From contig LUCE01000019.1 of assembly GCA_001593935.1 (NCBI GenBank), forward strand, positions 35,491 to 99,490: 64,000 nucleotides of DNA, read 5' to 3'. The notes under the pieces were generated by a model. The model saw only the letters and a program-made list of their open reading frames with translations. It was not told the DNA's origin and searched no databases. Position 1 is the first letter of the stretch. Each line of letters starts with the position of its first letter. The translations under genes were made by a program, and so were the position numbers. Of the stretch, positions 7,195 through 55,608 are shown one piece after another. Source of the stretch: Candidatus Bathyarchaeota archaeon B26-2 (lineage in GTDB: Archaea; Thermoproteota; Bathyarchaeia; Bathyarchaeales; B26-1).

Positions 7195-9099
7195 ATGAAA
7201 GGGTGGAGGCGAAAGGTCTTGAGCGGGGAGGTTCAGCCGAGAAGGTGGAGCCTTCAATCTTGGTATGAACAGAACAGGAGATGGGTTAACCTTCCACCCG
7301 TGGGAGGCTCAGCATCCATCGAGCCTTCTCAGGCGAGGGCTTGCGAGGCTAGGAGGTGGGTCTTAACCTACGAGGTTGGGGACGATCCCTTAACTGAAGG
7401 GTCACATATAGCCTTTGAGTTTCCCGACTGGTGGACCCTCGACTTGGGTAGGCCCCTCTTGACGGGAACCGTCAACATCGGTCTGCCCTCTGAGGTTGGT
7501 AGGGGCTACGGCGCCCACGTTGTAGCCGAGGCCTCGAGGGAGGGGGTCGACCTCGACTTGGCCATAACCTTCGCTTCACGCTTCAAGGTCGTCGACATAG
7601 TCGTCCTTAAAGGACGCTTGGAGAAGGGAGACCGCGTGAAGGTTCATATAGGGGCGGCTCCGGGCTCGAAGGTAAGGGCTCAAAAGTTTGCTCAGAGAGC
7701 GGTCTTCGCTATGGGCGTCGATGTGAATGGGGATGGAGTATATCGGAGGGTAGACCCTCACCCATCTGTGGACGTGAAGGGCGCTTGGCCGGCCGACTTG
7801 AAGGTCGTTGCCCCGGCGACTGTTACGAAAGAAGAGGAATTCTCCGTCAAGGTTCTAGCTGTCGATAAGTACGGCCCAAACCCCGCCACAGACTACAGAG
7901 GTAAAGTGGAGATCATCCCCTCAAAGGGTGACGGGATAAAGGTGCCTCGGAGGAATATCTTATTCCGCGGTGACCCATCGGCTGAGGAGGGTGGGTTCGT
8001 AGCTGGGGACGACGGGTTCTATTACTTGACGGCTGTCGACGTGGAGAACGCTCTGGCCGGGAGGAGCAACCCTATAGCCGTCGGCTGCTCCGAGAAAAGT
8101 CTCTTCTTCGGCGATATCCACGGCCAGATGTATGAGAGCATCGGAACGGGGACCCTTGACGAGTATTACCGTTGGGGACGAGACGTCGAGTTCCTCGACT
8201 TCTGCGCTCCAGCCAACCATTATGGAGGCCGCTACGACTTCACGGACGCCCTCTGGGAGGAGCTCGTCGAGAAGACGAACAGTTATAACGAGCCTGGAAG
8301 GTTCGTCACCCTCATCGGCTACGAGTGGAGCGGCCGTGCGGGGCATAGAAACGTCTACTACCGCGGCTCCTACGGGCCGTTCCTCTCCCGTTGGAGAAGC
8401 CCAGAGTACAGCACCCTAGAGAGCTTGTGGAGGGCCCTTGAAGGCTTGGACGCTATGACTATCCCTCACCCCCATCTGGGTAATATAGACTGGAGCCTCC
8501 GGAACGATGATATGCAGAGGGTAGTCGAGATATGCTCAGCTTGGGGAATCTCTGAGGACTCTGTTCAAGACGCGTTGGCGAGGGGACATCGCCTCGGCTT
8601 CATCGGTGGTACAGACACACACTTCGGCCAACCCGGCCACGGGCCACATGACGCCGGTGAGGGGGGAGGTCTCGCCGCGGTCTATGCTGACGCATTGACA
8701 CGGGAGGCCATCTATGACGCTATATACGACCGGTACTGCTACGCGACGAACGGGGTGAGAATCTTCCTCAAGTTCACAGTTGACGGCCATAGGATGGGGG
8801 AGGAGTTCTCCGTTTCTTCTGAAAGGCCCTATAAGGCGCGGAGAATCCATGTGACGGCTGCTGGAACGAACAGAATCGAGAGAGTCGAGATCATTAGGAA
8901 CGGAGAAACCGTTCACACATGGGAGCCGGACAGCCTCGTCTTCTCGGACGATTGGCACGACGAGGAGCCGATAGAGGAGCTCGTGATCTCCCCTGAGACC
9001 CGAAGAGAGCCGCCCTTTCTGTATTACTATTGCCGCGTGTCACAGATAGATACAGGGATGGCTTGGTCCAGCCCCGTCTGGATAACTTTGGGAGGTTAA
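7195..9099 (+). CDS. DUF3604-like metal-dependent hydrolase with an N-terminal beta-rich domain
   Basis: FFGDIHGQ, YEWSGRAGHRNVYY, GGTDTHFGQPGH and YATNGVRIF resemble the PHP-like DUF3604 pattern. The true start is uncertain. Confidence 0.45.
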   Translation: MKGWRRKVLSGEVQPRRWSLQSWYEQNRRWVNLPPVGGSASIEPSQARACEARRWVLTYEVGDDPLTEGSHIAFEFPDWWTLDLGRPLLTGTVNIGLPSEVGRGYGAHVVAEASREGVDLDLAITFASRFKVVDIVVLKGRLEKGDRVKVHIGAAPGSKVRAQKFAQRAVFAMGVDVNGDGVYRRVDPHPSVDVKGAWPADLKVVAPATVTKEEEFSVKVLAVDKYGPNPATDYRGKVEIIPSKGDGIKVPRRNILFRGDPSAEEGGFVAGDDGFYYLTAVDVENALAGRSNPIAVGCSEKSLFFGDIHGQMYESIGTGTLDEYYRWGRDVEFLDFCAPANHYGGRYDFTDALWEELVEKTNSYNEPGRFVTLIGYEWSGRAGHRNVYYRGSYGPFLSRWRSPEYSTLESLWRALEGLDAMTIPHPHLGNIDWSLRNDDMQRVVEICSAWGISEDSVQDALARGHRLGFIGGTDTHFGQPGHGPHDAGEGGGLAAVYADALTREAIYDAIYDRYCYATNGVRIFLKFTVDGHRMGEEFSVSSERPYKARRIHVTAAGTNRIERVEIIRNGETVHTWEPDSLVFSDDWHDEEPIEELVISPETRREPPFLYYYCRVSQIDTGMAWSSPVWITLGG

Positions 9100-34171: not shown

Positions 34172-36349
34172 ATGAAAGAAGGGGCCGCTGAGAAAGGTTG
34201 GAGGCTTGAGGTAGGAGGCTTATTCCTTATGACCGAACGTAAACCTTGGTGGCGCAGTGTTATGACTATAGCTGACCTAGGAAAGATCAGCGTCGAAGAG
34301 GTTCTTAAACTCGACCCGGCTGAGCTCGCTGAGACTAAGCGGAGGCTCGGCTTCAACACCGAACACATAACATGCGGCGACACGTATGGAGGAGTGAAGG
34401 ACGTCTTCTACTTCAAGACTAGCATAGCCCGAGAAGTTCCGAGAGACTTTATAGGTGAGTATATACCCGAAGCCCACAAGAGAGGCATAAAAGTCCTAAT
34501 CTACTACAACGTCCACCGGCTCCATGTGGAGTTCGGCAGAAAGCATCCAGAATGGATTCAGGTCAACGCGCAAGGCAGGATTGTGGACAACCTCTATGGT
34601 TCTGGATGCGCCCCATGTGTAAACTCTCCATACCGCGACTGGTCCTTCCAGGGGATTAGAGACCTAGCAGCCTACGAGATTGACGGAGTCTTCTTGGATG
34701 GTCCCATCTTCGCGCCGGGAGCATGCTACTGCGAGAACTGCCAGACACTCTTCAAAGGAGAGTACGGCGTCGAACTGCCGAGAAAGGAGGACTGGAAGGA
34801 CCCCGCTTGGAGAAGTTTCATAGAGTTCAGGTACGAGAGCATAGCCAGCTACCTGCGAGACGCCGAGAAGGCTTTGAAGACCGTCAGGCCGGAAGCCGTC
34901 ATCTACATGAACTGTACGGGGCTGTGGCCGGCTTGGCCGGCGGCCAGAGACAACCGACGGCTTATGCCTTATCAGGACTTCTTGGGGGCTGAGGGGGGCT
35001 TCCTCTACTATGACTTAAGGGCGACACCGCTCTGGAAGCCGGGGATGGCAGCTAAGCTCCTCGAGACCCAGGCTGGAGGTAAGCCGACCGTCGTCTTCAT
35101 CGCCGGGGCCCACAAGGGCTGGGACACGTATCTGCTCCCCCCGACCGAAACGCGACTCTTATACGCCGACGCGGTTGCGAACGGCGCCAACCCGTGGTAC
35201 GGCATACCTTTGCGTCTGGCTGGGGGGCCTGGCGCCTTGGCAGCTGGTGAGATGAACCGTTTCCTTGTGGGGAACGCTGAGTATCTTGAAGAGACAGTTC
35301 CTCTCGCTCGGGTTGCCCTCTTCTGGTCTTGTAGGACCGCTGATTTTTATAGGGCGAGCGTTCCGGTCACGGACTTCACACCTCAAGGCGAAAGGTTGGG
35401 GAGGCGTGAGGCCGCCGGGAACTTTTACGCGAGTTTCTTGGGGTGCTACGAGGCGTTCGTCAGGTCTCATGTTCCCTTCAACGTCTTAGATGAGGAGGCC
35501 TTAACGCTTGAAACGCTTCGCGGTTACGACCTCTTGGTTGCTCCAAATTGTGCTTGCATCTCGGAGGAGAAGGCTGAGGTCATAGAGGACTATGTTAAGA
35601 GCGGAGGCAACCTCATCGCGAGCTTCGAAGCGTCCAGATACGATGAGTATGGGGACCTCCGCGAGAAGTTCAGCCTCTCCGATGTCTTCGGCGTCGAGGT
35701 TGGGAAGGGAACCTTCGGCCCCATGAGACTCGACTACATGACCGTCGTGGAATTGGAGTCGCCCCTAACCGAGGGTTTAAGCGCTACGCTTCTCCCATGC
35801 CCGGTCTACGGGATAGAGGTCGTTCCGACGACGGCTAAGCCCTTAACGATGTATCACGAGAAGATGCCGGCCCGGTATGTGAAGCTGCCGCCGGTCTCGA
35901 GGAACCCAGCGGTCACGCTCAACGATTACGGGGATGGCAGATGCCTCTACATGGCCGGAAACTTCTTCGAGCACTACTACAACTACCACAACCCGGATTA
36001 CAGGAGGATTGTAGCCAACGCTGTCGGGTTGATGAGTAAAGTCCTCGTCACCTTGGAGAACTGTCCAACCAGCGTCGAGGTTACACTTCGACACCAGCCC
36101 GGGAAGGGTAGGCTCCTCGTTCACCTTGTCAACTTCACGGGTGAGATGACGAGGCCGATGGAGTCCGTTGTAACACTCAGAGATGTAGCCGTAACTTTAC
36201 ACAGATTCCAAGGCTTGAAGAAGGCTAAAGCCCTAAGGTTGGGCAAGGAACTCAGCCTCGAAGACGTCAACGGCGACGTCAAGGTCGTACTGCCACTCTT
36301 AAAAGAATACGAAGTCATAACTTTGGAGCCCTTGGAGGTAACGTTATAA
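34172..36349 (+). CDS. GHL6-like putative glycoside hydrolase with a beta-galactosidase-trimerisation-like domain
   Basis: KVLIYYNVH, DGVFLDGP and CYCENCQ, followed by a class-I glutamine amidotransferase-like middle domain (YDLLVAPNCACI). No signal peptide. Confidence 0.45.
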   Translation: MKEGAAEKGWRLEVGGLFLMTERKPWWRSVMTIADLGKISVEEVLKLDPAELAETKRRLGFNTEHITCGDTYGGVKDVFYFKTSIAREVPRDFIGEYIPEAHKRGIKVLIYYNVHRLHVEFGRKHPEWIQVNAQGRIVDNLYGSGCAPCVNSPYRDWSFQGIRDLAAYEIDGVFLDGPIFAPGACYCENCQTLFKGEYGVELPRKEDWKDPAWRSFIEFRYESIASYLRDAEKALKTVRPEAVIYMNCTGLWPAWPAARDNRRLMPYQDFLGAEGGFLYYDLRATPLWKPGMAAKLLETQAGGKPTVVFIAGAHKGWDTYLLPPTETRLLYADAVANGANPWYGIPLRLAGGPGALAAGEMNRFLVGNAEYLEETVPLARVALFWSCRTADFYRASVPVTDFTPQGERLGRREAAGNFYASFLGCYEAFVRSHVPFNVLDEEALTLETLRGYDLLVAPNCACISEEKAEVIEDYVKSGGNLIASFEASRYDEYGDLREKFSLSDVFGVEVGKGTFGPMRLDYMTVVELESPLTEGLSATLLPCPVYGIEVVPTTAKPLTMYHEKMPARYVKLPPVSRNPAVTLNDYGDGRCLYMAGNFFEHYYNYHNPDYRRIVANAVGLMSKVLVTLENCPTSVEVTLRHQPGKGRLLVHLVNFTGEMTRPMESVVTLRDVAVTLHRFQGLKKAKALRLGKELSLEDVNGDVKVVLPLLKEYEVITLEPLEVTL

Positions 36350-40161: not shown

Positions 40162-42375
40162 ATGTATGAGCGCAGGGTCTTAGTCTTTCCTGAGGTGAAA
40201 GAAGTCTCATACAAAGATGGAGAGATCATCATCGATGAAGAGTATCGTGTAGTTCTAAGCGGTGATGCAGCTCCCTTGGAGGCTGAGGCTGCCGACGGCG
40301 TAGCGAGGATGATAGAGAGGCTTACCGGTCGGCGTCCTCAAGTGGTCGATGTCCACCACGTATCTGGAAAAGAGAAGGTCATCCTTGTTGGCACCTCTTT
40401 TAGGGATATGCTGACATCTAGGCTTGACCGTTCAGAGCCGGAAGGCTACGTCTTGGAGGTCAGTGAAGAGAGGATCATACTCTGTGGTAATGATGCTTCT
40501 GGAACCTTCTATGCCGGTGAGACCTTGAAGCAGCTCTTCAGGGTTAGGGATGGGAGACTCTACGTTCCGAGGGTGACCATCAAGGACTGGCCTGACTACC
40601 GTTATAGGGGCTTGTACGTCGAGAGTAAGTGGGGGCCGGACCTAATGACCCTAGATGACTGGAGGGAACTGATAGACTTTATGGCGAGCATCAAGTTGAA
40701 CTTTCTGGACATCGGTGTCTACGGTTGTTGGACTATACAGTATGAGAACCAGATCACTGAGTTCATGATGGTCCCGGTAAGAGCATACCCGAGGTTGAGA
40801 ACCCCGAAGACAATTAGGTATTATTCGCCCCTACGTAAGGGTTGGGTGAGCATAACTTATCTGCCGAGAATCTTCTCCGAAGACTTCTTCTCCGAGATCA
40901 TAGCCTACGGAAAGAGACGAAACGTCACGGTGAGACCGGCCTTCAACAGCCTTGGACATAACACCCTCATACCGAGGGAGTACCCCGAGGTCTCCTCGAT
41001 AGACGAGGAGGGAAACCCCACACACTATGGCTTCTGCCTGACCAACCCAAAGACCCTCAGACTTATGTTCGAGATATACGACGAGATCATTGAGAGGTAC
41101 CTCAAACCGAACGGCGTAGACACCTTCAACATAGAGCTCGACGAGGTCTACGCTGGCAGGGGTAAAGACCCGAAGGACCCTAAGAAACTCGTGGATCCTT
41201 GGTGTCGGTGCCTCCGATGCAGCGGGTTCAAGAGAGAAGACCTCTTCCTAGAGTACGTAGTCAACCTTATTCGACATTTGGCAGAGAGGGGGATGAAAAA
41301 GGTGAGTCTATGGAACGATCAGATTACAAGGATGGGCCTCTTGGAGAGGTTCGCGGCGCGTCTAAAGGAGGAGAACCTAATAGACAAGGTGGCGATCAAC
41401 TGGTGGTACTACGGTCCCGATGAAGAGAGCCTAGAGACGGAAAGGTTCGACCGCGGCCGGTTCGGTTCTGAGTTGGGTCTGACCCGTTGGGTTACGCCTA
41501 TGGCCGGCTACTTCTTCTGGTGGCTCTACCAGAGTCTTCTTCGGAACATATTCCTCATGTTGAGGAGGGGCTTCAGGCAAGAAGCCGAAGGCACCGTGGC
41601 GTACTGCACCTTCGATTATAGCTTCCACAGAAACTACTACTGCCTATCCGACTTCTCTTGGAACCAGACGAAGGAGAGGGACCTAAACCAGTTCGACGAG
41701 AAGTACGCCAAGGCGGTCTTCGGAGAGGAGTGGGAGAAAGGGTTGAAGGCACTAGAGGAGCTCGAGAAGATCGCCTCAGCCGGCAGCGAGACGAACCGTT
41801 TTCTCTCGAACCTCTTCTATTACCCGTACTCTTATGTTCATCCCGAGAGGAAGTATCCGAGGTCGTACCCGCAAGAGGTCATAGACAACCTGAAGGGAGA
41901 CCAGAAGGTTCCTCTCTCCGCATATTTGGATAGGATTAGAGAGCTCCACGAGACCGCTAGAAGGGCCAAGGAACTCTTCCTCTCCATAAACAATGTGAAG
42001 ACAACTGCCTCTCCAAGGCTTCTGGAACACTACATAGTTGAATGTGAACGATATGAGACGACACTCAAGGTTTACCTACTCATCTTCAGAGCCTTGAACC
42101 ATTATAAAGGAGCTAAAGAAAACCAATCAAGGGATAGAGATAAGACCCTAAAAAACTTGGATGAAGCAGTCTCCTCCATCGACGAGGCCCTAAACCTGCA
42201 GGAGACGATGATGCTCAACATCGAGAGAACTAAATCGCATTACCTACTACCCCAAACCATGAGAGACCTCACCTTCATGAGGACTTTCCTTGTAGACCTC
42301 CGGGGGAAACTCCGCGCAGCAAGAGAGCGATACTTAAAGGGCATGACTTCGGAACTCCCGCCTCTAGACTTCTGA
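40162..42375 (+). CDS. GH20-like glycoside hydrolase (beta-N-acetylhexosaminidase-like) with a long helical C-terminal domain
   Basis: IKDWPDYRYRGLYVE, IKLNFLDIG, FNSLGHN and the D-E pair in FNIELDEVY. No signal peptide. Confidence 0.5.
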   Translation: MYERRVLVFPEVKEVSYKDGEIIIDEEYRVVLSGDAAPLEAEAADGVARMIERLTGRRPQVVDVHHVSGKEKVILVGTSFRDMLTSRLDRSEPEGYVLEVSEERIILCGNDASGTFYAGETLKQLFRVRDGRLYVPRVTIKDWPDYRYRGLYVESKWGPDLMTLDDWRELIDFMASIKLNFLDIGVYGCWTIQYENQITEFMMVPVRAYPRLRTPKTIRYYSPLRKGWVSITYLPRIFSEDFFSEIIAYGKRRNVTVRPAFNSLGHNTLIPREYPEVSSIDEEGNPTHYGFCLTNPKTLRLMFEIYDEIIERYLKPNGVDTFNIELDEVYAGRGKDPKDPKKLVDPWCRCLRCSGFKREDLFLEYVVNLIRHLAERGMKKVSLWNDQITRMGLLERFAARLKEENLIDKVAINWWYYGPDEESLETERFDRGRFGSELGLTRWVTPMAGYFFWWLYQSLLRNIFLMLRRGFRQEAEGTVAYCTFDYSFHRNYYCLSDFSWNQTKERDLNQFDEKYAKAVFGEEWEKGLKALEELEKIASAGSETNRFLSNLFYYPYSYVHPERKYPRSYPQEVIDNLKGDQKVPLSAYLDRIRELHETARRAKELFLSINNVKTTASPRLLEHYIVECERYETTLKVYLLIFRALNHYKGAKENQSRDRDKTLKNLDEAVSSIDEALNLQETMMLNIERTKSHYLLPQTMRDLTFMRTFLVDLRGKLRAARERYLKGMTSELPPLDF

Positions 42376-45101: not shown

Positions 45102-46472
45102 ATGAAGGTTATACTCTTCGTGATAGATACTCTGAGGGCCGACCACCTAGGCTGCTACGGCTACCATAGGGAGACTTCGCCGAATATAGATCGGTTGGCC
45201 AAGGAGGGCGTCCTCTTCGAGAACGCTTATCCCTCCGACGTCCCAACCCAGCCCTCCTTCACCTCCATGTTTACGGGGCAGAGAGGGATCATAACGGGCA
45301 TAGTCTCCCACAGCAGAACTGAGAACCTAAGCGAGTCGGTTCCGTACTTAACAGAGATTCTAGCCCAGAACGGAGTGACGACGGCCGCAGTGAGCACCCT
45401 CTACATGATGAGGCGGTGGTTTGCTAGGGGCTTCAAGTACTACATGAACCCGGTTGCAGGTGTTAGGAGACGGCTTCAACAAGTCGACGCTGAAGAGATC
45501 AATAGTATGGCTTTACCGTGGATAAGGGAGCATAAGAACGAGGATTTCTTCCTCTTCGTCCATTACTGGGACCCTCACGGCATATACTACCCTCCCGAGC
45601 CTTACAGGAGGCTCTTCTATCAGGGAGACGAGACCGACCCGGAGAACCGCAGCCTAGACGTGTTGAAGAGCCAGCCGGTGTGGCCCTTCACCAAGAGACA
45701 CCTAGACGCCATGAAGGAGAACATAACCGATATCGAGTACGTCATAGCCCAATACGACGGGGAGATACGTTACGCAGACGACAACTTTGCGAAGTTGACG
45801 GGCCTACTCGAAGAACTGGGAATCTACGACGAGACGGCGTTGATCCTCACATCTGACCACGGAGAGAGCCTAGGGGAGCACCACTTCTACTTCGACCACT
45901 GCGACGTCTACGAACCAACTGTGCACGTTCCCTTGATAGTTAAGTATCCGGAAGGACCCTCAAGAGGGAGGAGAGTAAAGGACCTAGTCCAGTCAACCCT
46001 ATCCATCGCCCCTACAGTCCTCAACCTCTTCGGCTTAGAAGTTCCCAAGAGCATGGAGGGGAGAGACCTAGTCAAGATAGCCGAGGGGGAGATCGGAGGC
46101 TACGACGAGATCTACGTCAATCAAGGCCTCTGGACGGCTAAGAGGGCTATACGCGTCGGGAAGTGGAAGCTCATAAAGACCTTGGACAAGTCCTTCTGGG
46201 AGACCCCTGAGACGGAACTCTACGATCTGGAGGCCGACCCAGATGAGAACGAGAATCTGGCTGAGGACGAACCGAGCGTGGTTGATGAACTCGAGCTGAG
46301 AATGTATCGTTGGCTTAGGCGGAGGCTTGGAAAGCGGATAGACCCTCTAGAACTTATAGTGAGGGAGGGCCTCCCAGTCTACGGGTACGTCAGGAGGGCC
46401 GCCGAGCAGGCCGGGCTCATCGAGATGTATGAAGAGTGGAGGATGCGCGTCGATAGGGCTGAAGAGAGATAG
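45102..46472 (+). CDS. Sulfatase-fold (alkaline-phosphatase superfamily) enzyme with Thr at the nucleophile position
   Basis: VIDTLRADHLGCYGY, NIDRLAKEGVLFENAY, PTQPSFTSMFTG (where sulfatases have C/S-x-P-S-R), SDHGESLGEH. No signal peptide. Confidence 0.8.
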   Translation: MKVILFVIDTLRADHLGCYGYHRETSPNIDRLAKEGVLFENAYPSDVPTQPSFTSMFTGQRGIITGIVSHSRTENLSESVPYLTEILAQNGVTTAAVSTLYMMRRWFARGFKYYMNPVAGVRRRLQQVDAEEINSMALPWIREHKNEDFFLFVHYWDPHGIYYPPEPYRRLFYQGDETDPENRSLDVLKSQPVWPFTKRHLDAMKENITDIEYVIAQYDGEIRYADDNFAKLTGLLEELGIYDETALILTSDHGESLGEHHFYFDHCDVYEPTVHVPLIVKYPEGPSRGRRVKDLVQSTLSIAPTVLNLFGLEVPKSMEGRDLVKIAEGEIGGYDEIYVNQGLWTAKRAIRVGKWKLIKTLDKSFWETPETELYDLEADPDENENLAEDEPSVVDELELRMYRWLRRRLGKRIDPLELIVREGLPVYGYVRRAAEQAGLIEMYEEWRMRVDRAEER

Positions 46473-47733: not shown

Positions 47734-48420
47734 TTATTCTACCACTTTCATAGTCCATAGTATTCCGTTCAGTAGGTGTCTTTGGAACCACTCTTCCTTC
47801 CATAACTCTTTGAAGTGACCGAAGGCTGTGTAGAAGACCCTTCCTTCACCGTAGTTGTGGCACCAGCATAGGGCGTAATCTTGGTCAGGACGGGTGCCTT
47901 TACTCAAGTCTACGGATCTCTTGTCTAGGCTTATCAGTACATGCGTCTTTTCTCGGCTCCAGTCCTTGAATGTGTAGACCTCTTCTTTCACCCTGAAGCT
48001 TTTGGGTAGGTGTCTCGTGGCTGGGTGGGTCTGGTCCTCCACTATAGCCGTTATCTCCTGTCTCCATGGGTGGGCTTGGAAGTAGCCTCCCAGCATCTCG
48101 CCGTACTCTGGGAATTCATAGAAGGTGTCTGTGGCGTTGTGGACGCCTACGAAGCCGCCTCCTTCCCTTACAAACTTTAAGAGTAACCTCTTCTGCTCCT
48201 CGTCCATTGGGAGCTCACCCGTAGTTGCGAAGAGGAGAGCCGAACACTCGCTCAAGGTCTCGGCGTTTATCAGCGAGCAGTCCTCTGTGTCTAAGGTCTG
48301 AAACATGCCGGAGAGACGTCCCAGCTCCCTAACGGTCTCCCTAGCCGTGGGAAGATAGTCATGTCTAAACCCGGCTGAATGCGTCAGCATAAGAACCTTC
48401 TTAACCTTCAAGGTGGACAC
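47734..48420 (-). CDS. ThuA-domain protein (trehalose-utilisation-like)
   Basis: VLMLTHSAGFRHDY, GGGFVGVHNATD, GEGRVFYTAFGH. Confidence 0.7.
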   Translation of the reverse strand: MSTLKVKKVLMLTHSAGFRHDYLPTARETVRELGRLSGMFQTLDTEDCSLINAETLSECSALLFATTGELPMDEEQKRLLLKFVREGGGFVGVHNATDTFYEFPEYGEMLGGYFQAHPWRQEITAIVEDQTHPATRHLPKSFRVKEEVYTFKDWSREKTHVLISLDKRSVDLSKGTRPDQDYALCWCHNYGEGRVFYTAFGHFKELWKEEWFQRHLLNGILWTMKVVE

Positions 48421-50249: not shown

Positions 50250-50439
50250 GACTTAAAAGAGCCTCTTTCCCTCAAATAAATTTAACCTAACCAGTTCTAA
50301 GCCGATGATCGTGGAATCCCTTCCAGATAAAGGAACCAGACTCCTCACGTGTGATGCGTGTCTCCCCGCATCTTCACTCCTCTTGGCTGAAAGGAGCAGA
50401 ATAAGCTTTTTATCCCAAAAGGGTTCATACCGGAGAAGG

Positions 50440-52296
50440 ATGGAGGTAGATGGGATGCATCCTCACCTCTTCTTGGACAAGGATGATATCTCTCAGCTGA
50501 GACGCCGGTTACAAGACGAGGATTTTAATCGACCGAACGTGCTGGGGGTCACCTACAGCCAGATATGGAAAGAGATCATGGAGGTCGCCGACTCGACTCT
50601 CCGGAGAAAGAGCATGAAGATCTACGAGGGAACCTACAATTATCCAGAGGGTTACCTTATGTCTTTGGTTGAACCGGAGCAGCCTCCCCGCCACTCTTTT
50701 AGACACCCGTTTTGGACCGGCATATGCGGGAGCCTATCGAGGGACATGACTAACCTGGCTTTGGCTTACGTCCTCGCTGGAGAACGTGCCTATCTTGAGA
50801 GATGTAGGTCGATGGTTCTCTCTATCTGTGAATGGGAAGTTTGGTCTGACCCGGATTACCCGACTCCGGAGAGACCCTTCCCTTGTTGCCTCGATACTTG
50901 GAGCCTCCTCTCGGGCATAGCAACGGCCTTCGACCTGTTATATGACGAGTTCACCGGGGAAGAAAGGGAGAAGATTAAGAACGCTATGATAGAGAAGGGG
51001 ATAATCCCAATCCGTGATTACGCCCTGAAGAAAGGGACGTGGCTGTATTCTCCTGAGAGGTGGCCGAACGGGTACGCCATGCTACACGCCGGGTTCGGAA
51101 TAGGAGCCTTATCCCTCTTAGGAGAATGTAGAGAAGCTGAAGAATGGGTCGAGTTTGAGAAGGAGAAGACCCTCCAATTCCTCGACCGTGAAGTCGGCCC
51201 GGACGGAGGGTTAATTGAGGGTCTCGGCTACGGGAACGCGGCGATAGCACCTCTACTGAAGTTCATGGTGGCCCTTGAAAGGACCACCGGCGACTCTATG
51301 CTTGACCACCCGGCCATAAGGAACGTCATGTTACTTGCTCTCTATACGCTTGCTCCAGGCGGTAAGACGGCCGTCAACTTCTGTGACGCCGGAGGCCCCG
51401 AGGGCTGTAAGCCCACCTTCAGCCTCCTGATGGCTTACCTAGCAGCGGTTAAAGGTAACAAGTACGCCCAGTGGTACCTGGCCGAGACCGGCCTATACAA
51501 GGAGGATTGGGGGAGGGACAACCTCTTCAAGATTCTCTGGTTCAACCCTTCTGTAGAAGCTAGAATCCCTAGTGACCTTCCGCGTTATAGACACTTCCGT
51601 TACACTGGATGGGTCGTCATGAGGTCTGGGTGGGGGCCATCGGACACGCTTGTAGCCTTCAAGAGTGGACCGTACAGAGGTCACGGACATACCGATCAGA
51701 ACAGTTTCATAATCAACTGCTCCGGGGAATGGCTGTTGAACGATAAAGGTTACCAGAGGTATGAGAGGCCTTACCCGTCCGACACTCCGGACATAGATGA
51801 GGAGAAGATTCGTCTCATGCACGTGTTCAGCCACGACACCATAGGACATAACTGTGTCTTGGTGGATGGACGTGGACAAGAGAGGGTGGGCGGGAAGATC
51901 GTAGAGTTTAATGGGTGGAACTTTGGTGCCACGGTGGTTGGGGACGCCTCTGAAGCGTATCCAAACTTGACTAAGGCCTTGAGAAGGTTGATCTTCATAG
52001 AACCAAACACGATCATCGTCCGAGACATCCTAGAGAGCGACCGTCCTAGGATGTTCAGCTTCCTAATGCACACAACAAAAGAAGGGAAGGTCAAGACCCA
52101 CGGCAGGGAGATCACGATAGAGGCTCAAAAGAGCAGGCTCCGAGCCTACGTGATAAAACCAGAGGAAGTCACCATAGAAGTGAAAACCTACCCGTACCCA
52201 CGCACCAGAGAAGAAGGACACTATGTTGAGATACGGAATAAGGAGAAATCCCCGAGAGGAGAGTTCCTAATAGCCCTGCAAACGTCATCACGTTGA
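50440..52296 (+). CDS. Heparinase II/III-like polysaccharide lyase family protein
   Basis: The N-terminal alpha/alpha toroid-like region starts HPHLFLDKDDISQLRRRL. The C-terminal part carries GHGHTDQNSFIINCSGEWLLND. Likely starts are ATG 50440 or 50455. No signal peptide. Confidence 0.65.
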   Translation: MEVDGMHPHLFLDKDDISQLRRRLQDEDFNRPNVLGVTYSQIWKEIMEVADSTLRRKSMKIYEGTYNYPEGYLMSLVEPEQPPRHSFRHPFWTGICGSLSRDMTNLALAYVLAGERAYLERCRSMVLSICEWEVWSDPDYPTPERPFPCCLDTWSLLSGIATAFDLLYDEFTGEEREKIKNAMIEKGIIPIRDYALKKGTWLYSPERWPNGYAMLHAGFGIGALSLLGECREAEEWVEFEKEKTLQFLDREVGPDGGLIEGLGYGNAAIAPLLKFMVALERTTGDSMLDHPAIRNVMLLALYTLAPGGKTAVNFCDAGGPEGCKPTFSLLMAYLAAVKGNKYAQWYLAETGLYKEDWGRDNLFKILWFNPSVEARIPSDLPRYRHFRYTGWVVMRSGWGPSDTLVAFKSGPYRGHGHTDQNSFIINCSGEWLLNDKGYQRYERPYPSDTPDIDEEKIRLMHVFSHDTIGHNCVLVDGRGQERVGGKIVEFNGWNFGATVVGDASEAYPNLTKALRRLIFIEPNTIIVRDILESDRPRMFSFLMHTTKEGKVKTHGREITIEAQKSRLRAYVIKPEEVTIEVKTYPYPRTREEGHYVEIRNKEKSPRGEFLIALQTSSR

Positions 52297-52824
52297 GAGC
52301 GCTCTCTCAGCGTAGTAACGGATGTCCATATCCGGATCGTTCAGCATCTCCTTGAGCTTGTCTCTTCCCTTGGGACCGAGAGCGACCTCAAGGTATCGCT
52401 TCAAAACCTCCTCATCGAATTCGCCCTCCTCGGTTATGGCGGCTAGGTTCTCCTCAAACTCGTCGAGACTATTCATACCCGGCACAACCGTTGCAACCTC
52501 CGGTGAGCTGAGAATCCAGCGGAGGCATGTCTGAGCAGGCGTGTACTCTCCTTCTTCTCCTTCCACAGGACCGAAACGCATAAACGGGATACCATAGTAT
52601 GGCCACGAGAAGGGCTTCATAACGACGACGCCAACCCTAAGGGCCTTGGCTACGGGGAAGATCACCTTGCGAGCCTCTTGGAGGTGATAGTTGTAACGTA
52701 CCATAACCACGTCGAAGCAGTTGTATCTTCGCATCAACTCGGCTAAGAATTGGAGGTTGTGGCTTGAGGCTCCCAAGTACCTGACCTTACCATCCTCTTT
52801 TAGAAGGTTGAAGGTTTCTAACAT
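52288..52824 (-). pseudogene. 5'-truncated aldo/keto reductase remnant
   Basis: Begins at the mid-barrel motif EDGKVRYLGASSHN. An in-frame stop lies 17 codons upstream, so the N-terminal ~150 aa with the catalytic Asp/Tyr/Lys are absent. The truncation point abuts the AT-rich patch. Confidence 0.6.
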
Positions 52825-52987
52825 CGCCTCCAGCCGTTCATGTGAGAAGTTGCTCTCAGGTGAATACGAGCCTTAAACCCCTTATTTTTATGATTTTTAT
52901 CCTTTAAACTTCAGATTAAAATTTTAATTTCTATCCCGACTTGGTGCTTGTTGTTTTTAAATCTCTAAAAAGGAAAGCGTGGAGATT

Positions 52988-53578
52988 TCAAAGGGTGTAG
53001 TCAATCACGAGGACAGCTGCGTCGCATGCGTGTCCCCCTCCAGTAACTCCTATAACCTCTGTTTGGAGACGTATCTTGGCCTGATTTATTTTGTTCCATG
53101 TATTTAGATACTGGGTTACGTCTACCTCTTTCCATGTCCAACTCCCTTCTCCTCTAAAGTTCATCACCTCGTTCCATGAGTTTCCATCCCATAGCCAAAC
53201 TGAAAAATATCGTTGAAGCGGTTTCGAGGGGTCTGCACGGCCGTAGACCCTAAGCGTTACTGAGTTGATTGTACCTGTTGCATCGTGATCTTCAAATCCG
53301 AAGTCCCCCATAAGGTCTCCATCCTTTGAGCCTGCTCCTCCAACTACGGTGTACACATAATTGTTCGGTTCGTCCTGGGCGTCTAGGTAGGGGGCTGTTC
53401 CAGCGGTCAGCCACTGAGTGCTTGTTGCATCAAAGGAATCGACATAGAGACGGCTATTTTTTATCGTCTGAGTTACATTGTGCAGTTGATTTTCATAGAT
53501 GTATCCACTAGTTAAAGATATGGTGAAGGCTAAGAAGATGAAGAAGAGGGGCGCAGCGTATCCAGATTTATCGGTCAT
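52988..53578 (-). CDS. Secreted or pilin-like hypothetical protein A
   Basis: N-terminal hydrophobic segment PLFFIFLAFTISL, then GYIYENQLHNVTQTIKN, which is shared with the divergent neighbour. Beta-rich body. Lower GC than the window average. Confidence 0.5.
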   Translation of the reverse strand: MTDKSGYAAPLFFIFLAFTISLTSGYIYENQLHNVTQTIKNSRLYVDSFDATSTQWLTAGTAPYLDAQDEPNNYVYTVVGGAGSKDGDLMGDFGFEDHDATGTINSVTLRVYGRADPSKPLQRYFSVWLWDGNSWNEVMNFRGEGSWTWKEVDVTQYLNTWNKINQAKIRLQTEVIGVTGGGHACDAAVLVIDYTL

Positions 53579-53748
53579 CTCTACAAGAAAAGGGGAATCT
53601 CTTCCATATTAGGGAAATGAACTCTGCGTTCAGCTTCGCCGTTCAATAAGGAAAATATAGTGTAGCGATTCAAACTCATCGTTCACATTCTATTTATTAA
53701 TAAAGTTACAAGATGATAGACGATCTGGAAGAAAAAGGAGAAAGCCTA

Positions 53749-54276
53749 ATGAAGAATATAAAAAAGCTGTCTGGACTCTTCTTCATGTTACTCAGCTTAA
53801 TCATATCAGCTGTTTCAGCCTATGTCTATGAGCAGAGCTCTATGACGGTTACTCAGACGATTCAAGATATAGCGACGCTGACTCTAAGCAATGCTGCTTT
53901 GGGCACCATTGAGGAAGGGCAGACGGTTACCTACACTCCAAGTACTACGCCGGCGCTTGACGGCATCATCCAAGTCGTAACAACAAAGAGTAATGTCTAC
54001 CTGCATCTGGACAGTGACTTAGATAGCCAATCCTCAAACTATGTAACATACAATATTACTGTCAAATTTGATACTGTTCCGGCAGGCTCAAGCTACAGTG
54101 TGGGCGATGTAGCATGCACTCTAACTCTCTCATCTCCTGACTATCACTCGATAACTCTAGATGTAGCGGGAACATGGAAGTTCGACTTCGAGATAACCAC
54201 AACCCCGCAAGGAGTGAGCGCCGACACCGATACAACCGTGACGATCACAGTCTCAGCTGAGAGCACATCGTCCTAA
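53749..54276 (+). CDS. Secreted or pilin-like hypothetical protein B
   Basis: ATG at 53749 lies 8 nt after AAGGAG. MKNIKKLSGLFFMLLSLIISAVSAYVYEQSSMTVTQTIQD, then a Thr/Ser-rich beta-strand pattern. Confidence 0.5.
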   Translation: MKNIKKLSGLFFMLLSLIISAVSAYVYEQSSMTVTQTIQDIATLTLSNAALGTIEEGQTVTYTPSTTPALDGIIQVVTTKSNVYLHLDSDLDSQSSNYVTYNITVKFDTVPAGSSYSVGDVACTLTLSSPDYHSITLDVAGTWKFDFEITTTPQGVSADTDTTVTITVSAESTSS

Positions 54277-54293
54277 AATCGGGAGCAAGAACA

Positions 54294-54554
54294 ATGAAAC
54301 TAAAAAATAACTTACATTACATCGTCTTTACACTAATATTTACCACATGGATCGTCTCGATGGTGATTATCCTCGAGCCGTTCGGATTGCTAAAGACTTA
54401 TCCACCAACATTTCCACGCAGAATAGATCCAAACATCATCACAGTCTTCTCCATAACCAGCGTGCTTTCCACCGTAATCTCCTTCCTCATAGGACTGGAT
54501 AAACTGGGAAAACTCTCCGCGATCAAAGAAAACATTAGGAGGCGGCTAAACTAA
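54294..54554 (+). CDS. Small two-TM membrane protein
   Basis: Two hydrophobic helices (IVFTLIFTTWIVSMVIIL, ITVFSITSVLSTVISFLIGL). Lies 17 nt downstream of protein B. Confidence 0.4.
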   Translation: MKLKNNLHYIVFTLIFTTWIVSMVIILEPFGLLKTYPPTFPRRIDPNIITVFSITSVLSTVISFLIGLDKLGKLSAIKENIRRRLN

Positions 54555-54622
54555 AAAGAAAATCGATAAATGGAGATATGTTCTCCTGTGAGAGACCGAT
54601 GATGCTTCAGGTGCTGATGAAG

Positions 54623-54904
54623 TCACGCTGTGATCTCTTCAACTTCTGCTTTACCTTTCTCTAGCTCCTTCACCTGTTCCGCATCTTCTTTAAGTAATAA
54701 TGCTTGGAACTCTCCGAAATGGGTCTTTTCCTCGTTAGCTACGTCCATCAAAACGGCTTTTAGTTTTTCATCCTCGGTTATAGCCGCTAATTGTTCGTAT
54801 AAGCTTATTGCGTCGAGTTCGGCTATCATCGCTGCTCTCAATATCTCACGGTTAAGAACACTCTTCTCCACCTTTTCAATCGCGATCGGTATCTTAGACA
54901 GCAT
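54623..54904 (-). CDS. Encapsulated-ferritin-like (EncFtn family) ferritin-like protein
   Basis: 93 aa with AMIAELDAISLYEQLA and ANEEKTHFGEFQALL (Glu / ExxH di-iron ligand pattern of EncFtn). Confidence 0.65.
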   Translation of the reverse strand: MLSKIPIAIEKVEKSVLNREILRAAMIAELDAISLYEQLAAITEDEKLKAVLMDVANEEKTHFGEFQALLLKEDAEQVKELEKGKAEVEEITA

Positions 54905-55182
54905 CTAAATCATCTCACGAGGAAGGTTTATTGTTAATCATTATTATTTATGTTTTGTCGCTTCAGTCCATCACCCATTACATTCAAAGATTAATCTTCT
55001 TACTTGTTATTAATTCAGAAGCGCCATAACAAAGGTTGGTGATAAACCTACACTTATAAAAGTGGCACGTACATCACAGAGGAAAACTAAGCACCAGCGG
55101 TATTACCTTAACAGAGAGCAACTAGAACAAGTTGGCCATCCTACACAAAAGATAAGGAACCTAAAATGGTGAAGAACTAAAC

Positions 55183-55189
55183 TTTAAAT
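55183..55189 (+). promoter_or_regulatory. Candidate TATA box of tRNA-Pro
   Basis: TTTAAAT is centred ~28 nt upstream of tRNA position 1. Confidence 0.4.
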
Positions 55190-55213
55190 CTATGTGTGGT
55201 TTAGAATCTGGGT

Positions 55214-55291
55214 GGGGTCGTCGGCTAGCATGGTCTAGGCTCCGAGACTTGGGCTCTCGGGACCCCGGTTCGAATCCGGGCGACCCCACCA
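55214..55291 (+). tRNA. tRNA-Pro (anticodon UGG), CCA encoded
   Basis: Folded by hand. Acceptor GGGGTCG/CGACCCC; D arm GGCT-AGCATGGTCTA-GGCT; anticodon arm CGAGA-CTTGGGC-TCTCG with TGG at 55250-55252; variable loop GGAC; T arm CCCGG-TTCGAAT-CCGGG; discriminator A plus CCA. Confidence 0.88.
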
Positions 55292-55608
55292 CAAGACACC
55301 TACGGTTACAAGGTTTCCTCTCTTGTTTCCAGAAAAGAAGCCCATTTCAATGTTTCTGTATAACGTGTGAGATTCTCGAAGATGCTGCGGACCGAGGTCT
55401 TCACATTATTCATTCTTCATTCTCAAGTTTTAAGCGGCCTCGGGAGTGGAGTTATCGTGGTGAAGGATGAAAGAGAAGACTTTAGCGAGATAGAGCAGAA
55501 ATAATGTTGAATTGAGTAATCTATCCCCTGATGCGCATAAAGTTTATAAGGTTTATAATGTTTGAATCTGAGTACCTGTGCACCAACGATCATCAAGTGG
55601 CGATCTTT

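Follow-up and report, generated by a model that had tools for sequence, protein, structure and literature searches.

In the donor-strand fiber of TasA, the N terminus of the accessory protein TapA resembles the donor strand of the subunit and was proposed to be the source of the first strand (PMC9674648). Saci_0405, which can offer a donor strand and lacks an acceptor site, was proposed to act as a cap or nucleator (PMC9715654), a nucleator or tip role has also been proposed for AbpB (PMC9245690), and TafC, a tip adhesin of the Laminin-G type, donates its own N-terminal strand (PMC11821415). CanX-like proteins are substrates of the Sec system and of signal peptidase I (SPase I), with no chaperone or peptidase nearby; HMMER-detectable homologs of CanX are restricted to the Pyrodictiaceae, and distant CanX-like proteins are found mostly in the Sulfolobaceae and Thermocladiaceae (PMC12518558). 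The Bathyarchaeia are not mentioned in these papers on donor-strand fibers. Here, we describe three genes, A, B, and C, in a stretch of 64,000 nucleotides (nt) from Candidatus Bathyarchaeota archaeon B26-2, referred to below as the window, and we think it reasonably probable that they specify a chaperone-free fiber of the TasA/TapA or thread kind, in which B subunits polymerize by donating strands to one another and A (at other loci, its equivalents) plugs in as an adhesin, cap, or nucleator. Such a fiber would most likely be a new, Bathyarchaeia-specific variant of the known chaperone-free donor-strand fibers, and its most likely distinguishing marks are a portable strand module common to many lectin heads and a conserved partner with two transmembrane helices. 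Bathyarchaeia rank with the most abundant of the uncultured archaea in sediments and are thought to degrade polymeric carbon; to our knowledge, nothing is known about their surface structures.

A first-pass annotation of this DNA had reported two divergently transcribed genes and, 17 nt after the second of them, a small gene for a membrane protein, and all three were found where it had placed them. The cassette consists of the following parts, with the predicted SPase I site marked by a slash.

52988-53578, minus strand: A, 196 amino acids (aa); proposed accessory protein, N-terminal module plus predicted jelly roll of the carbohydrate-binding type
53504-53578, minus strand: predicted signal peptide of A, aa 1-25; site TSG/Y
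53456-53503, minus strand: conserved N-terminal strand of A, aa 26-41, YIYENQLHNVTQTIKN
53749-54276, plus strand: B, 175 aa; predicted major fiber subunit
53749-53820, plus strand: predicted signal peptide of B, aa 1-24, MKNIKKLSGLFFMLLSLIISAVSA; site VSA/Y
53821-53868, plus strand: conserved N-terminal strand of B, aa 25-40, YVYEQSSMTVTQTIQD; proposed donor strand
53854-53856 (Gln36 of B) and 53467-53469 (Gln37 of A): conserved Gln of the V-T-Q-T-I motif
54294-54554, plus strand: C, 86 aa; membrane hairpin of two transmembrane helices, starting 17 nt past B

A and B resemble each other in their N termini alone. In a BLASTP comparison, the meaningful part of the alignment joined residues 11 to 41 of A to residues 10 to 40 of B (E value of 1e-7), and the bodies did not align to each other, in agreement with the first-pass annotation. 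The same annotation had called the first ~40 residues nearly superimposable, which is slightly generous: the region does align, but the hydrophobic stretch after the residues SG is 18 aa long in A and 14 aa long in B. Within the window, the motif Y-[IV]-Y-E-[NQ]-x4-V-T-Q-T-I is present in no open reading frame (ORF) other than A and B. Residues were tabulated around the conserved aromatic residue for 179 module-bearing proteins. Position -1 is Ala in 96% of them, and position -3 is Val (74%), Ala (17%), or Thr (7%), together ~98%; a Pro at -5 or -6 is found in several of the proteins termed X below, and residues -3 to -1 of the A family are T-Y-A, T-S-G, or similar. The n-region has a net charge of ~+2, and the median length of the apolar stretch is 18 aa. 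These statistics at -3 and -1, together with the basic n-region and the 18-aa apolar stretch, are consistent with an ordinary Sec signal of the SPase I type, and the module fits a Sec signal and a predicted SPase I cleavage site followed by a conserved strand. No twin-arginine consensus is conserved in the n-regions, which are rich in Lys and Arg; an incidental RR occurs in some B homologues, and the window's own A and B have none. The predicted mature N terminus reads [FY]-V-Y-E-[QST]-x-x-x-x-[VI]-T-Q-T-I, or, in short, [FY]-V-Y-E-x5-V-T-Q-T-I after the SPase I site. It is rich in Thr, Val, Ile, and Tyr and hence strand favoring, and the Gln at mature position 12 is conserved in 99% of the 179 proteins, across unrelated bodies.

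B is predicted to have a fiber-subunit-like fold. In an AlphaFold2 (AF2) model based on an alignment of 118 sequences (predicted local distance difference test [pLDDT] value of 85.7), residues 3 to 21 form a helix and residues 42 to 172 form a beta-sandwich, with the segment between them, residues 22 to 41, left without placement and the motif modeled as a low-confidence coil of the monomer (pLDDT of 60 to 70). No segment of B is more conserved than the N-terminal strand, and this is the very part that AF2 cannot place, as would be expected of a strand shared between subunits. The five best PDB matches in a Foldseek search were Hyper2, ex vivo cannulae, CanA, and Saci_0406 thread subunits. The Hyper2 tube (9bab) ranked best, with an E value of 1.8e-5 and template-modeling (TM) scores of 0.60/0.70, and was followed by the Pyrodictium ex vivo cannulae (9h8b), CanA (7uii), and the Sulfolobus thread (7pnb). 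The cannula and Hyper2 matches range from 1.8e-5 to 3.4e-4 in E value and from 0.53 to 0.70 in TM score; the thread match has a low TM score of 0.36, and the extended N-terminal tail of the thread subunit was perhaps aligned as well. Chaperone-usher pilins occupied ranks 6 to 20 and, in all, most of the 45 places after the first five; like the five best matches, they are subunits completed by the N-terminal strand of a neighbor. No archaeal type IV pilin or archaellin was present among these 50 matches, nor were TasA and AbpA. Donor-strand filaments were one of two examples that the first-pass annotation had offered for its proposed shared route, and this example suits both the fold of B and the order of an SPase I-type site and a beta-prone segment; B is proposed to polymerize by strand donation. 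The mature part of B (151 residues) contains 17 Asp/Glu versus 3 Lys/Arg residues and 32.5% Ser plus Thr, with no enrichment of N-glycosylation sequons. We also noted a conserved acidic segment, HLDSDLDS, at residues 86 to 93 (54004-54027) of this protein, whose net charge is ~-14; by analogy with the sites driving cannula assembly, it could be a divalent-cation site.

The AF2 model of A, based on an alignment of 12 sequences, has a pLDDT of 74 and shows a jelly roll, for which Foldseek returned the carbohydrate-binding domain of BcsB, APC10, CBM29/61/16, and an alginate-binding carbohydrate-binding module (CBM). In Pfam, A has sub-threshold matches only, to GH114_assoc and CBM96, and none of the three proteins A, B, and C gave a match above threshold in Pfam, NCBIfam, or PHROGs. 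A thus appears CBM-like, and we propose that its mature form of 171 residues is a strand-donating adhesin, cap, or nucleator. The first-pass annotation had described both A and B as beta rich, which holds for the predicted folds and leaves out that the predicted roles are distinct, B being fiber-subunit-like and A CBM-like.

The module is not confined to this window. A 40-column module profile matched 40 proteins at an E value of ≤1e-3 among 1.84 billion representatives (matches are given P numbers), including one clear false positive, P0138. A degenerate DNA pattern of the motif matched 22 stretches in 185,579 GTDB genomes, one per species. Sixteen of the 22 lie in metagenome-assembled genomes (MAGs) of Bathyarchaeota/Bathyarchaeia, and the other 6 (seven matches) have no signal peptide and are within the ~13 chance matches estimated arithmetically. 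The feature is real and beyond chance. B has >150 homologues of 50 to 78% identity, all of them unnamed proteins, whose named source records are Bathyarchaeota, Thermoproteota/"Crenarchaeota," or unclassified archaeal MAGs; A has 15. Related loci are numbered L001 to L032, and X denotes the equivalent of A at these loci, that is, a protein with the module and a body other than B, encoded after B and C or divergently from B. Across the Bathyarchaeia, the module is found on at least eight body types, namely, A, B, and at least six others, which include the following.

L006, L011, L021, and L026: X body, DUF2341 plus Laminin_G_3
L028: X body, distant A-like/CBM96-like domain
L016: X body, 195-aa domain without assignment
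L017: X body, Ice-binding-like beta-helix (E value of 1e-52)
P0165: module-profile match, CBM96 body
P0168: module-profile match, double Laminin_G body
P0174: module-profile match, 483-aa repeat protein

The central idea of the first-pass annotation, that a conserved N-terminal module on divergent bodies marks a shared export or assembly route, is supported by this recurrence, and the motif is indeed carried by exported proteins with further bodies. To judge from sequence and models, the A and X bodies are self-contained carbohydrate-binding folds. According to Pfam coordinates, only ~45 to 60 residues separate the strand from DUF2341, which leaves no room for a pilin domain in the X proteins with Laminin_G. 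A single genome can hold many copies: the MAG CAVQNT01 (MFD04408.bin.1.228) has at least nine module genes (L011, L015, L021, L022, L025, and L031). Among them, L015 and L022 represent a divergent B/X pair and its inverted duplicate on one 1-Mb contig, and the X gene of L021 stands alone, no B being present within 8 kb of it.

Gene neighborhoods were compared at 20 loci, 17 of which hold B, and B, C, and X were the only conserved neighbors. The recurring order is B-C-X, or X divergent from B, and X adjoins the B gene in ~10 of the 11 X-bearing loci. C follows B in most loci; by tblastn, it lies directly 3' of B in the window and in L001-3, L004/5/18, L006/7, L011, L015/22, L016, L025, L028, L030, and L032. 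The protein has two transmembrane helices, an external loop of ~20 aa with P-T-F-P, and a basic C-terminal tail, and its homologues share a Trp-containing first helix, a Y-L-P turn, the P-T-F-P loop, and the second helix. In the metagenomic protein P0164 (165 aa), the gene call fuses a C-like protein of two transmembrane helices to the signal and strand of the next X, which suggests tight packing of C and X by overlap or read-through. As the first-pass annotation had stated, assembly genes are lacking nearby: tblastn detected no pilus ATPase (T2SSE) or platform (T2SSF) gene in the window, and no signal peptidase was seen among the 27 neighboring window ORFs scanned (~31.7 to 63.6 kb). Likewise, neither the cassette nor its conserved neighborhood encodes a SipW-type peptidase, and no periplasmic chaperone or outer-membrane usher is present in the window or the related loci. 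T2SSE/T2SSF genes lie near the cassette at only 2 of the 20 loci (contexts L001-3 and L008/9). One of these is a type IV pilus-like locus directly beside A-B-C in a Bathyarchaeal contig (L001, 702-9040), which encodes two very large Big_1/PKD proteins (670 and 528 aa) with class III-like signals (KA/IS and KG/IS), one T2SSE ATPase and two short T2SSF proteins in a Tad-like arrangement, and a TackOD1-domain protein; in L008/9, a type IV pilus locus lies 5 kb from the cassette. A linkage to the T2SSE/T2SSF/TackOD1 locus was considered on account of L001 and dismissed, as it is not general across loci.

In our proposal, A, B, and C would form a compact cassette for an extracellular donor-strand fiber that works without a chaperone, usher, or ATPase. 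The module proteins would be exported via Sec and cut by the general SPase I after V/A/T-x-A, and this cleavage would expose the beta-prone N-terminal strand with its [FY]-V-Y-E signature. The strand of each B would then fill the groove of the next B to give a linear or tubular polymer. A and X, which combine the strand with a complete lectin-type body, could donate a strand and not accept one, so that a single copy would sit in the groove left open at one fiber end, either as nucleator and tip adhesin or as terminal cap. C would probably act in the membrane as an anchor or assembly partner, which is the weakest step of the scheme. A fiber with a CBM at its tip might tether the cell to a polymeric substrate, as its setting among polysaccharide-degrading genes (see below) would suggest. 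A more far-reaching version, which we put forward tentatively and regard as possible if doubtful, is that the module acts as a portable plug. By gaining the ~40-residue signal plus strand, any secreted domain with a carbohydrate-binding or adhesive function would be able to clip onto the B fiber; the general Sec/SPase I machinery and C would suffice, the Gln might lock the subunits by a specific or even covalent contact, and the cassette would move near tRNA-Pro. If this were true, these archaea would have an exchangeable repertoire of fiber-borne lectins, a minimal analogue of cellulosome or tip-adhesin systems. By analogy with the isopeptide of the thread, the conserved Gln might be an inter-subunit contact or a covalent lock of the ester/isopeptide type, which is pure speculation.

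The surroundings of the cassette in the window are as follows.

52825-55530: low-GC patch containing A, B, C, the ferritin-fold gene, and tRNA-Pro
52288-52824, minus strand: truncated aldo/keto reductase of which the C-terminal half is left; forms the left edge of the patch
53579-53748: divergent intergenic region between A and B, 170 nt, GC 0.365
54623-54904, minus strand: EncFtn-like/rubrerythrin-like ferritin-fold gene, 93 aa, inside the patch
55214-55291, plus strand: tRNA-Pro(UGG), 660 nt beyond C
34172-36349: GHL6/GH42M/ThuA
40162-42375: GH20
45102-46472: sulfatase
47734-48420: ThuA
50305-52296: heparinase II/III-like

The ferritin-fold gene is not part of the conserved B-C-X unit at other loci. 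The first-pass annotation had pointed out an AT-rich patch with genes in the low 40s. The patch is there: positions 52825-54560 have a GC content of 0.437 versus a window mean of 0.528 (standard deviation of 0.029 for windows of the same size) and rank within the lowest 20 of the 1246 windows compared, and in this sliding-window calculation the lowest value of the 64 kb (0.416) belongs to a window that starts inside the patch, at 53451. The intergenic stretches are at ~0.36 and C at 0.41, but A (0.469) and B (0.462) are in the mid-40s. GC3 is 0.47 to 0.53 in the genes of the patch versus 0.56 to 0.66 in neighboring genes. The region between A and B presumably holds both promoters; an A/T-rich box, TTTATTAATAAA, at 53693-53704 is a candidate promoter element, and AGGAG precedes the ATG of B by ~10 nt, both read by eye from the sequence. 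For B, a 187-aa reading from 53713 is possible; homologues begin at the Met of MKNIKK instead. At the left border, the Pfam match of the aldo/keto reductase ORF spans only profile positions 235 to 285 of 291, in-frame stops lie upstream of this remnant, and the break coincides with the drop in GC at ~52,830 to 52,860. The genes from 31699 to 52296 make up a polysaccharide/glycosaminoglycan-utilization neighborhood, which also includes GFO/IDH/MocA genes and major facilitator superfamily (MFS) transporters. These surroundings fit a role in substrate attachment for a CBM-tipped fiber; the setting is not kept at other cassette loci.

The cassette has a GC content of 0.39 to 0.50 in host contigs of 0.34 to 0.52, and it therefore looks AT rich only in GC-richer genomes such as that of B26-2. 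In the closest relative, L032 (A 76% identical), the A-B-C unit stands among different genes, with broken TPP_enzyme_C fragments (68 and 115 aa) adjoining A, and is found on the other side of the tRNA-Pro region (85% identical; 8904-8994). The different flanks suggest that the A-B-C unit relocates, apparently near tRNA-Pro. No att-like direct repeats were found around the patch, the inverted repeats there being the two modules themselves, and no integrase or viral signature belongs to the cassette.

Several findings weigh against the fiber proposed here. The cannula strand has a central Gly, which is absent from the module, where Gly reaches no more than 6% at any position of the strand (the maximum being at mature position 11), and the strand lacks a clean alternation of hydrophobic and polar residues. 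The hydrophobic core of the signal is conserved in part as well ([LI]-S-x-S-[IV] pattern; Ile at -6 in 73%), which a plain Sec signal does not need. In the AF2 model of A, a single helix runs through residues 8 to 35, including the motif, and would suit a signal anchor or a pilin-like lollipop. At the sequence level, the B profile (118 sequences) retrieved none of the PDB sequences of CanX, CanA, Hyper2, AbpA, or the thread at an E value of ≤10, and 18 B members matched neither TasA (Peptidase_M73, PF12389) nor DUF1102 nor a pilin family in Pfam at an E value of ≤5; of the TasA type named in the first-pass annotation, a donor-strand likeness of the fold is retained, without membership in Peptidase_M73 and without a SipW-type peptidase. 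Finally, the strands of 12 cognate B-X pairs (window, L001, L004, L006, L011, L014, L016, L017, L022, L026, L027, and L028) are no more alike than those of shuffled pairs (88 versus 88.7; p 0.68). Mature position 8 is identical in 6 of the 12 pairs versus 2.9 expected, including rare His and Leu residues, an excess that is not convincing after 14 tests, and B-type strands show systematic differences from X-type strands at positions 5 to 7 and 9. The lack of Gly, alternation, and cognate likeness, the conservation of the core, and the helix of A keep alive a reading in which the module serves surface anchoring or sorting with no fiber at all: it would be an uncleaved anchor or be handled by a dedicated factor, and its juxtamembrane segment would dock lectin-like ectodomains, that of B included, to C or to the S-layer, giving tethered surface proteins. 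Such a role would also account for C as the conserved membrane neighbor, and an apolar stretch with a median of 18 aa is near the lower limit for a membrane span. We nevertheless hold it to be unlikely, since SPase I, and not an anchor, requires the small residues that are nearly invariant at -1 and -3, the fold of B matches fiber subunits specifically and not generic lectins, and the mature segment is strand favoring and, in B, left unplaced by AF2. The lollipop shape of the A model would also suit type IV pilin-like proteins, whose class III signal would be cut by a PibD/FlaK-type peptidase and whose helix would form the core of an ATPase-driven pilus; this was the other example given in the first-pass annotation. 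A Gly precedes the hydrophobic stretch in ~78% of the module proteins, mostly B, and pilus loci adjoin the cassette in L001-3 (T2SSE, two T2SSF, TackOD1) or lie 5 kb away in L008/9. However, neither the A family nor the X family conserves the pre-helix Gly, and a FlaFind-like motif ([KR]-[GA] before the helix) is present in only 1 of 156 module proteins, whereas the pilin-like proteins encoded at type IV pilus loci of Bathyarchaeia (L001 and L008), four in number, fit it without exception. Added to this, no pilin- or archaellin-type model matched A, B, or C (Pfam, E value of ≤1; NCBIfam, E value of ≤10), T2SSE/T2SSF genes are absent from the window as from nearly all of the loci, and the helix of B ends at residue 21 in a protein with no archaeal pilin or archaellin among its top 50 folds. 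The class III signal was rejected on the 1/156 fit, and the pilin-like reading, largely refuted, is highly improbable.

The likeness of the modules might also be purely historical, a common 5' segment of signal and linker that was inherited or exchanged by duplication and recombination and has no special function. There is similarity at the DNA level, where the A and B modules share two 11-nt exact runs, and there are two imperfect inverted repeats, I1 (53517-53548/53776-53807, 32 nt at 75%) and I2 (53455-53476/53848-53869, 22 nt at 82%), which flank the shared promoter region because the 5' ends of A and B are alike and divergent. Genomes with many paralogues, duplicated pairs included, would agree with this history. 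We consider it quite improbable: in proteins that share 50 to 60% identity elsewhere, or are unrelated, no part is better conserved than the mature segment, the module is kept across genomes of 34 to 52% GC and on eight body types, and with modules only ~54% identical in DNA, recent conversion does not explain the conservation of the protein. Still another origin for the AT-rich patch by a tRNA gene would be the remnant of an integrated virus or mobile element with jelly-roll structural proteins. The low GC, the broken border gene, the nearby tRNA-Pro, the different location of the cassette in the closest relative, and the integrase and toxin-antitoxin genes downstream of it in L001 are what such an element would leave behind, but A, B, C, and the ferritin-like gene have no match in PHROGs, the best viral fold match (TM score of 0.40) is not a capsid protein, att-like repeats are lacking, and the cassette holds no genes for replication, integration, or packaging. 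A viral remnant was rejected on the PHROG and viral fold comparisons and is scarcely credible as an account of these genes.

If the donor-strand fiber proposed here is borne out, the chaperone-free donor-strand fibers described so far (TasA, Abp, thread, cannulae, and tafi) would extend to a new archaeal class, and the design would be modular, with many lectin heads recruited through a single strand sequence. The cassette offers a small, testable candidate, as the mature subunit of 151 residues and its lectin partner of 171 residues are both easily expressed. In addition, [FY]VYE-x5-VTQTI after an SPase I site provides a signature for finding surface adhesins in Bathyarchaeal MAGs.

Among the known systems, the cannulae (CanX/CanA of Pyrodictium) and Hyper2 of Hyperthermus, members of the TasA superfamily, are the best structural match for B. 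They also have a Sec/SPase I-type signal directly before the N-terminal strand, which here is predicted from sequence statistics, a conserved aromatic residue near the start of the strand, an acidic protein, and no chaperone, usher, or dedicated peptidase nearby. They differ in having no detectable sequence similarity to B and in the conserved central Gly of their donor strand (PMC12518558), and neither accessory proteins with a shared strand nor a partner with two transmembrane helices has been described for them. The thread of Sulfolobus acidocaldarius (Saci_0406; PMC9715654) is similar in fold (7pnb) and in its SPase I site followed by a conserved, Tyr-rich N terminus, and its co-transcribed, donor-only partner Saci_0405 embodies the logic proposed for A and X. 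Saci_0405, however, is itself homologous to the subunit and lacks both a lectin head and a predicted Sec signal, and the thread forms an isopeptide through an N-terminal Asp, whereas no Asp starts the module. In TasA-TapA-SipW (PMC9674648) and Pyrobaculum AbpA-AbpB (PMC9245690), as here, an accessory protein with a different, beta-rich body has an N terminus that resembles the donor strand of the subunit, and the genes for the major and accessory proteins are adjacent. Many interchangeable accessory heads here stand against one TapA, and the SipW-type peptidase of the TasA system has no counterpart in the cassette or its conserved neighborhood.

The haloarchaeal tafi (TafA/TafE/TafC/TafF/TafD; PMC11821415) are linear donor-strand fibers with a strand-donating, Laminin-G (ConA-like) tip and a membrane protein proposed as base anchor, and they share CfaB, FimA, and FimG with B as structural neighbors. 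Their subunits differ in carrying Tat signals (the Sec-dependent tafi-like systems are DUF1102 proteins, to which there is no match here), and the taf cluster, unlike this cassette, includes a gene for a signal peptidase, TafD. In TafC, a pilin-like domain precedes the lectin, whereas in the Bathyarchaeal proteins the strand is almost directly fused to it, and the ectodomain of TafF is pilin-like, whereas C consists of a bare hairpin of two helices. Chaperone-usher pili (Fim, Pap, CFA/I, and Csu) are alike in that an Ig-like subunit is completed by the N-terminal strand of its neighbor, the sequence of which governs which subunit joins, and differ in their chaperone, usher, and outer membrane, none of which applies here. 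Their adhesin accepts a strand and donates none, whereas the lectin proteins described here would have the opposite polarity.

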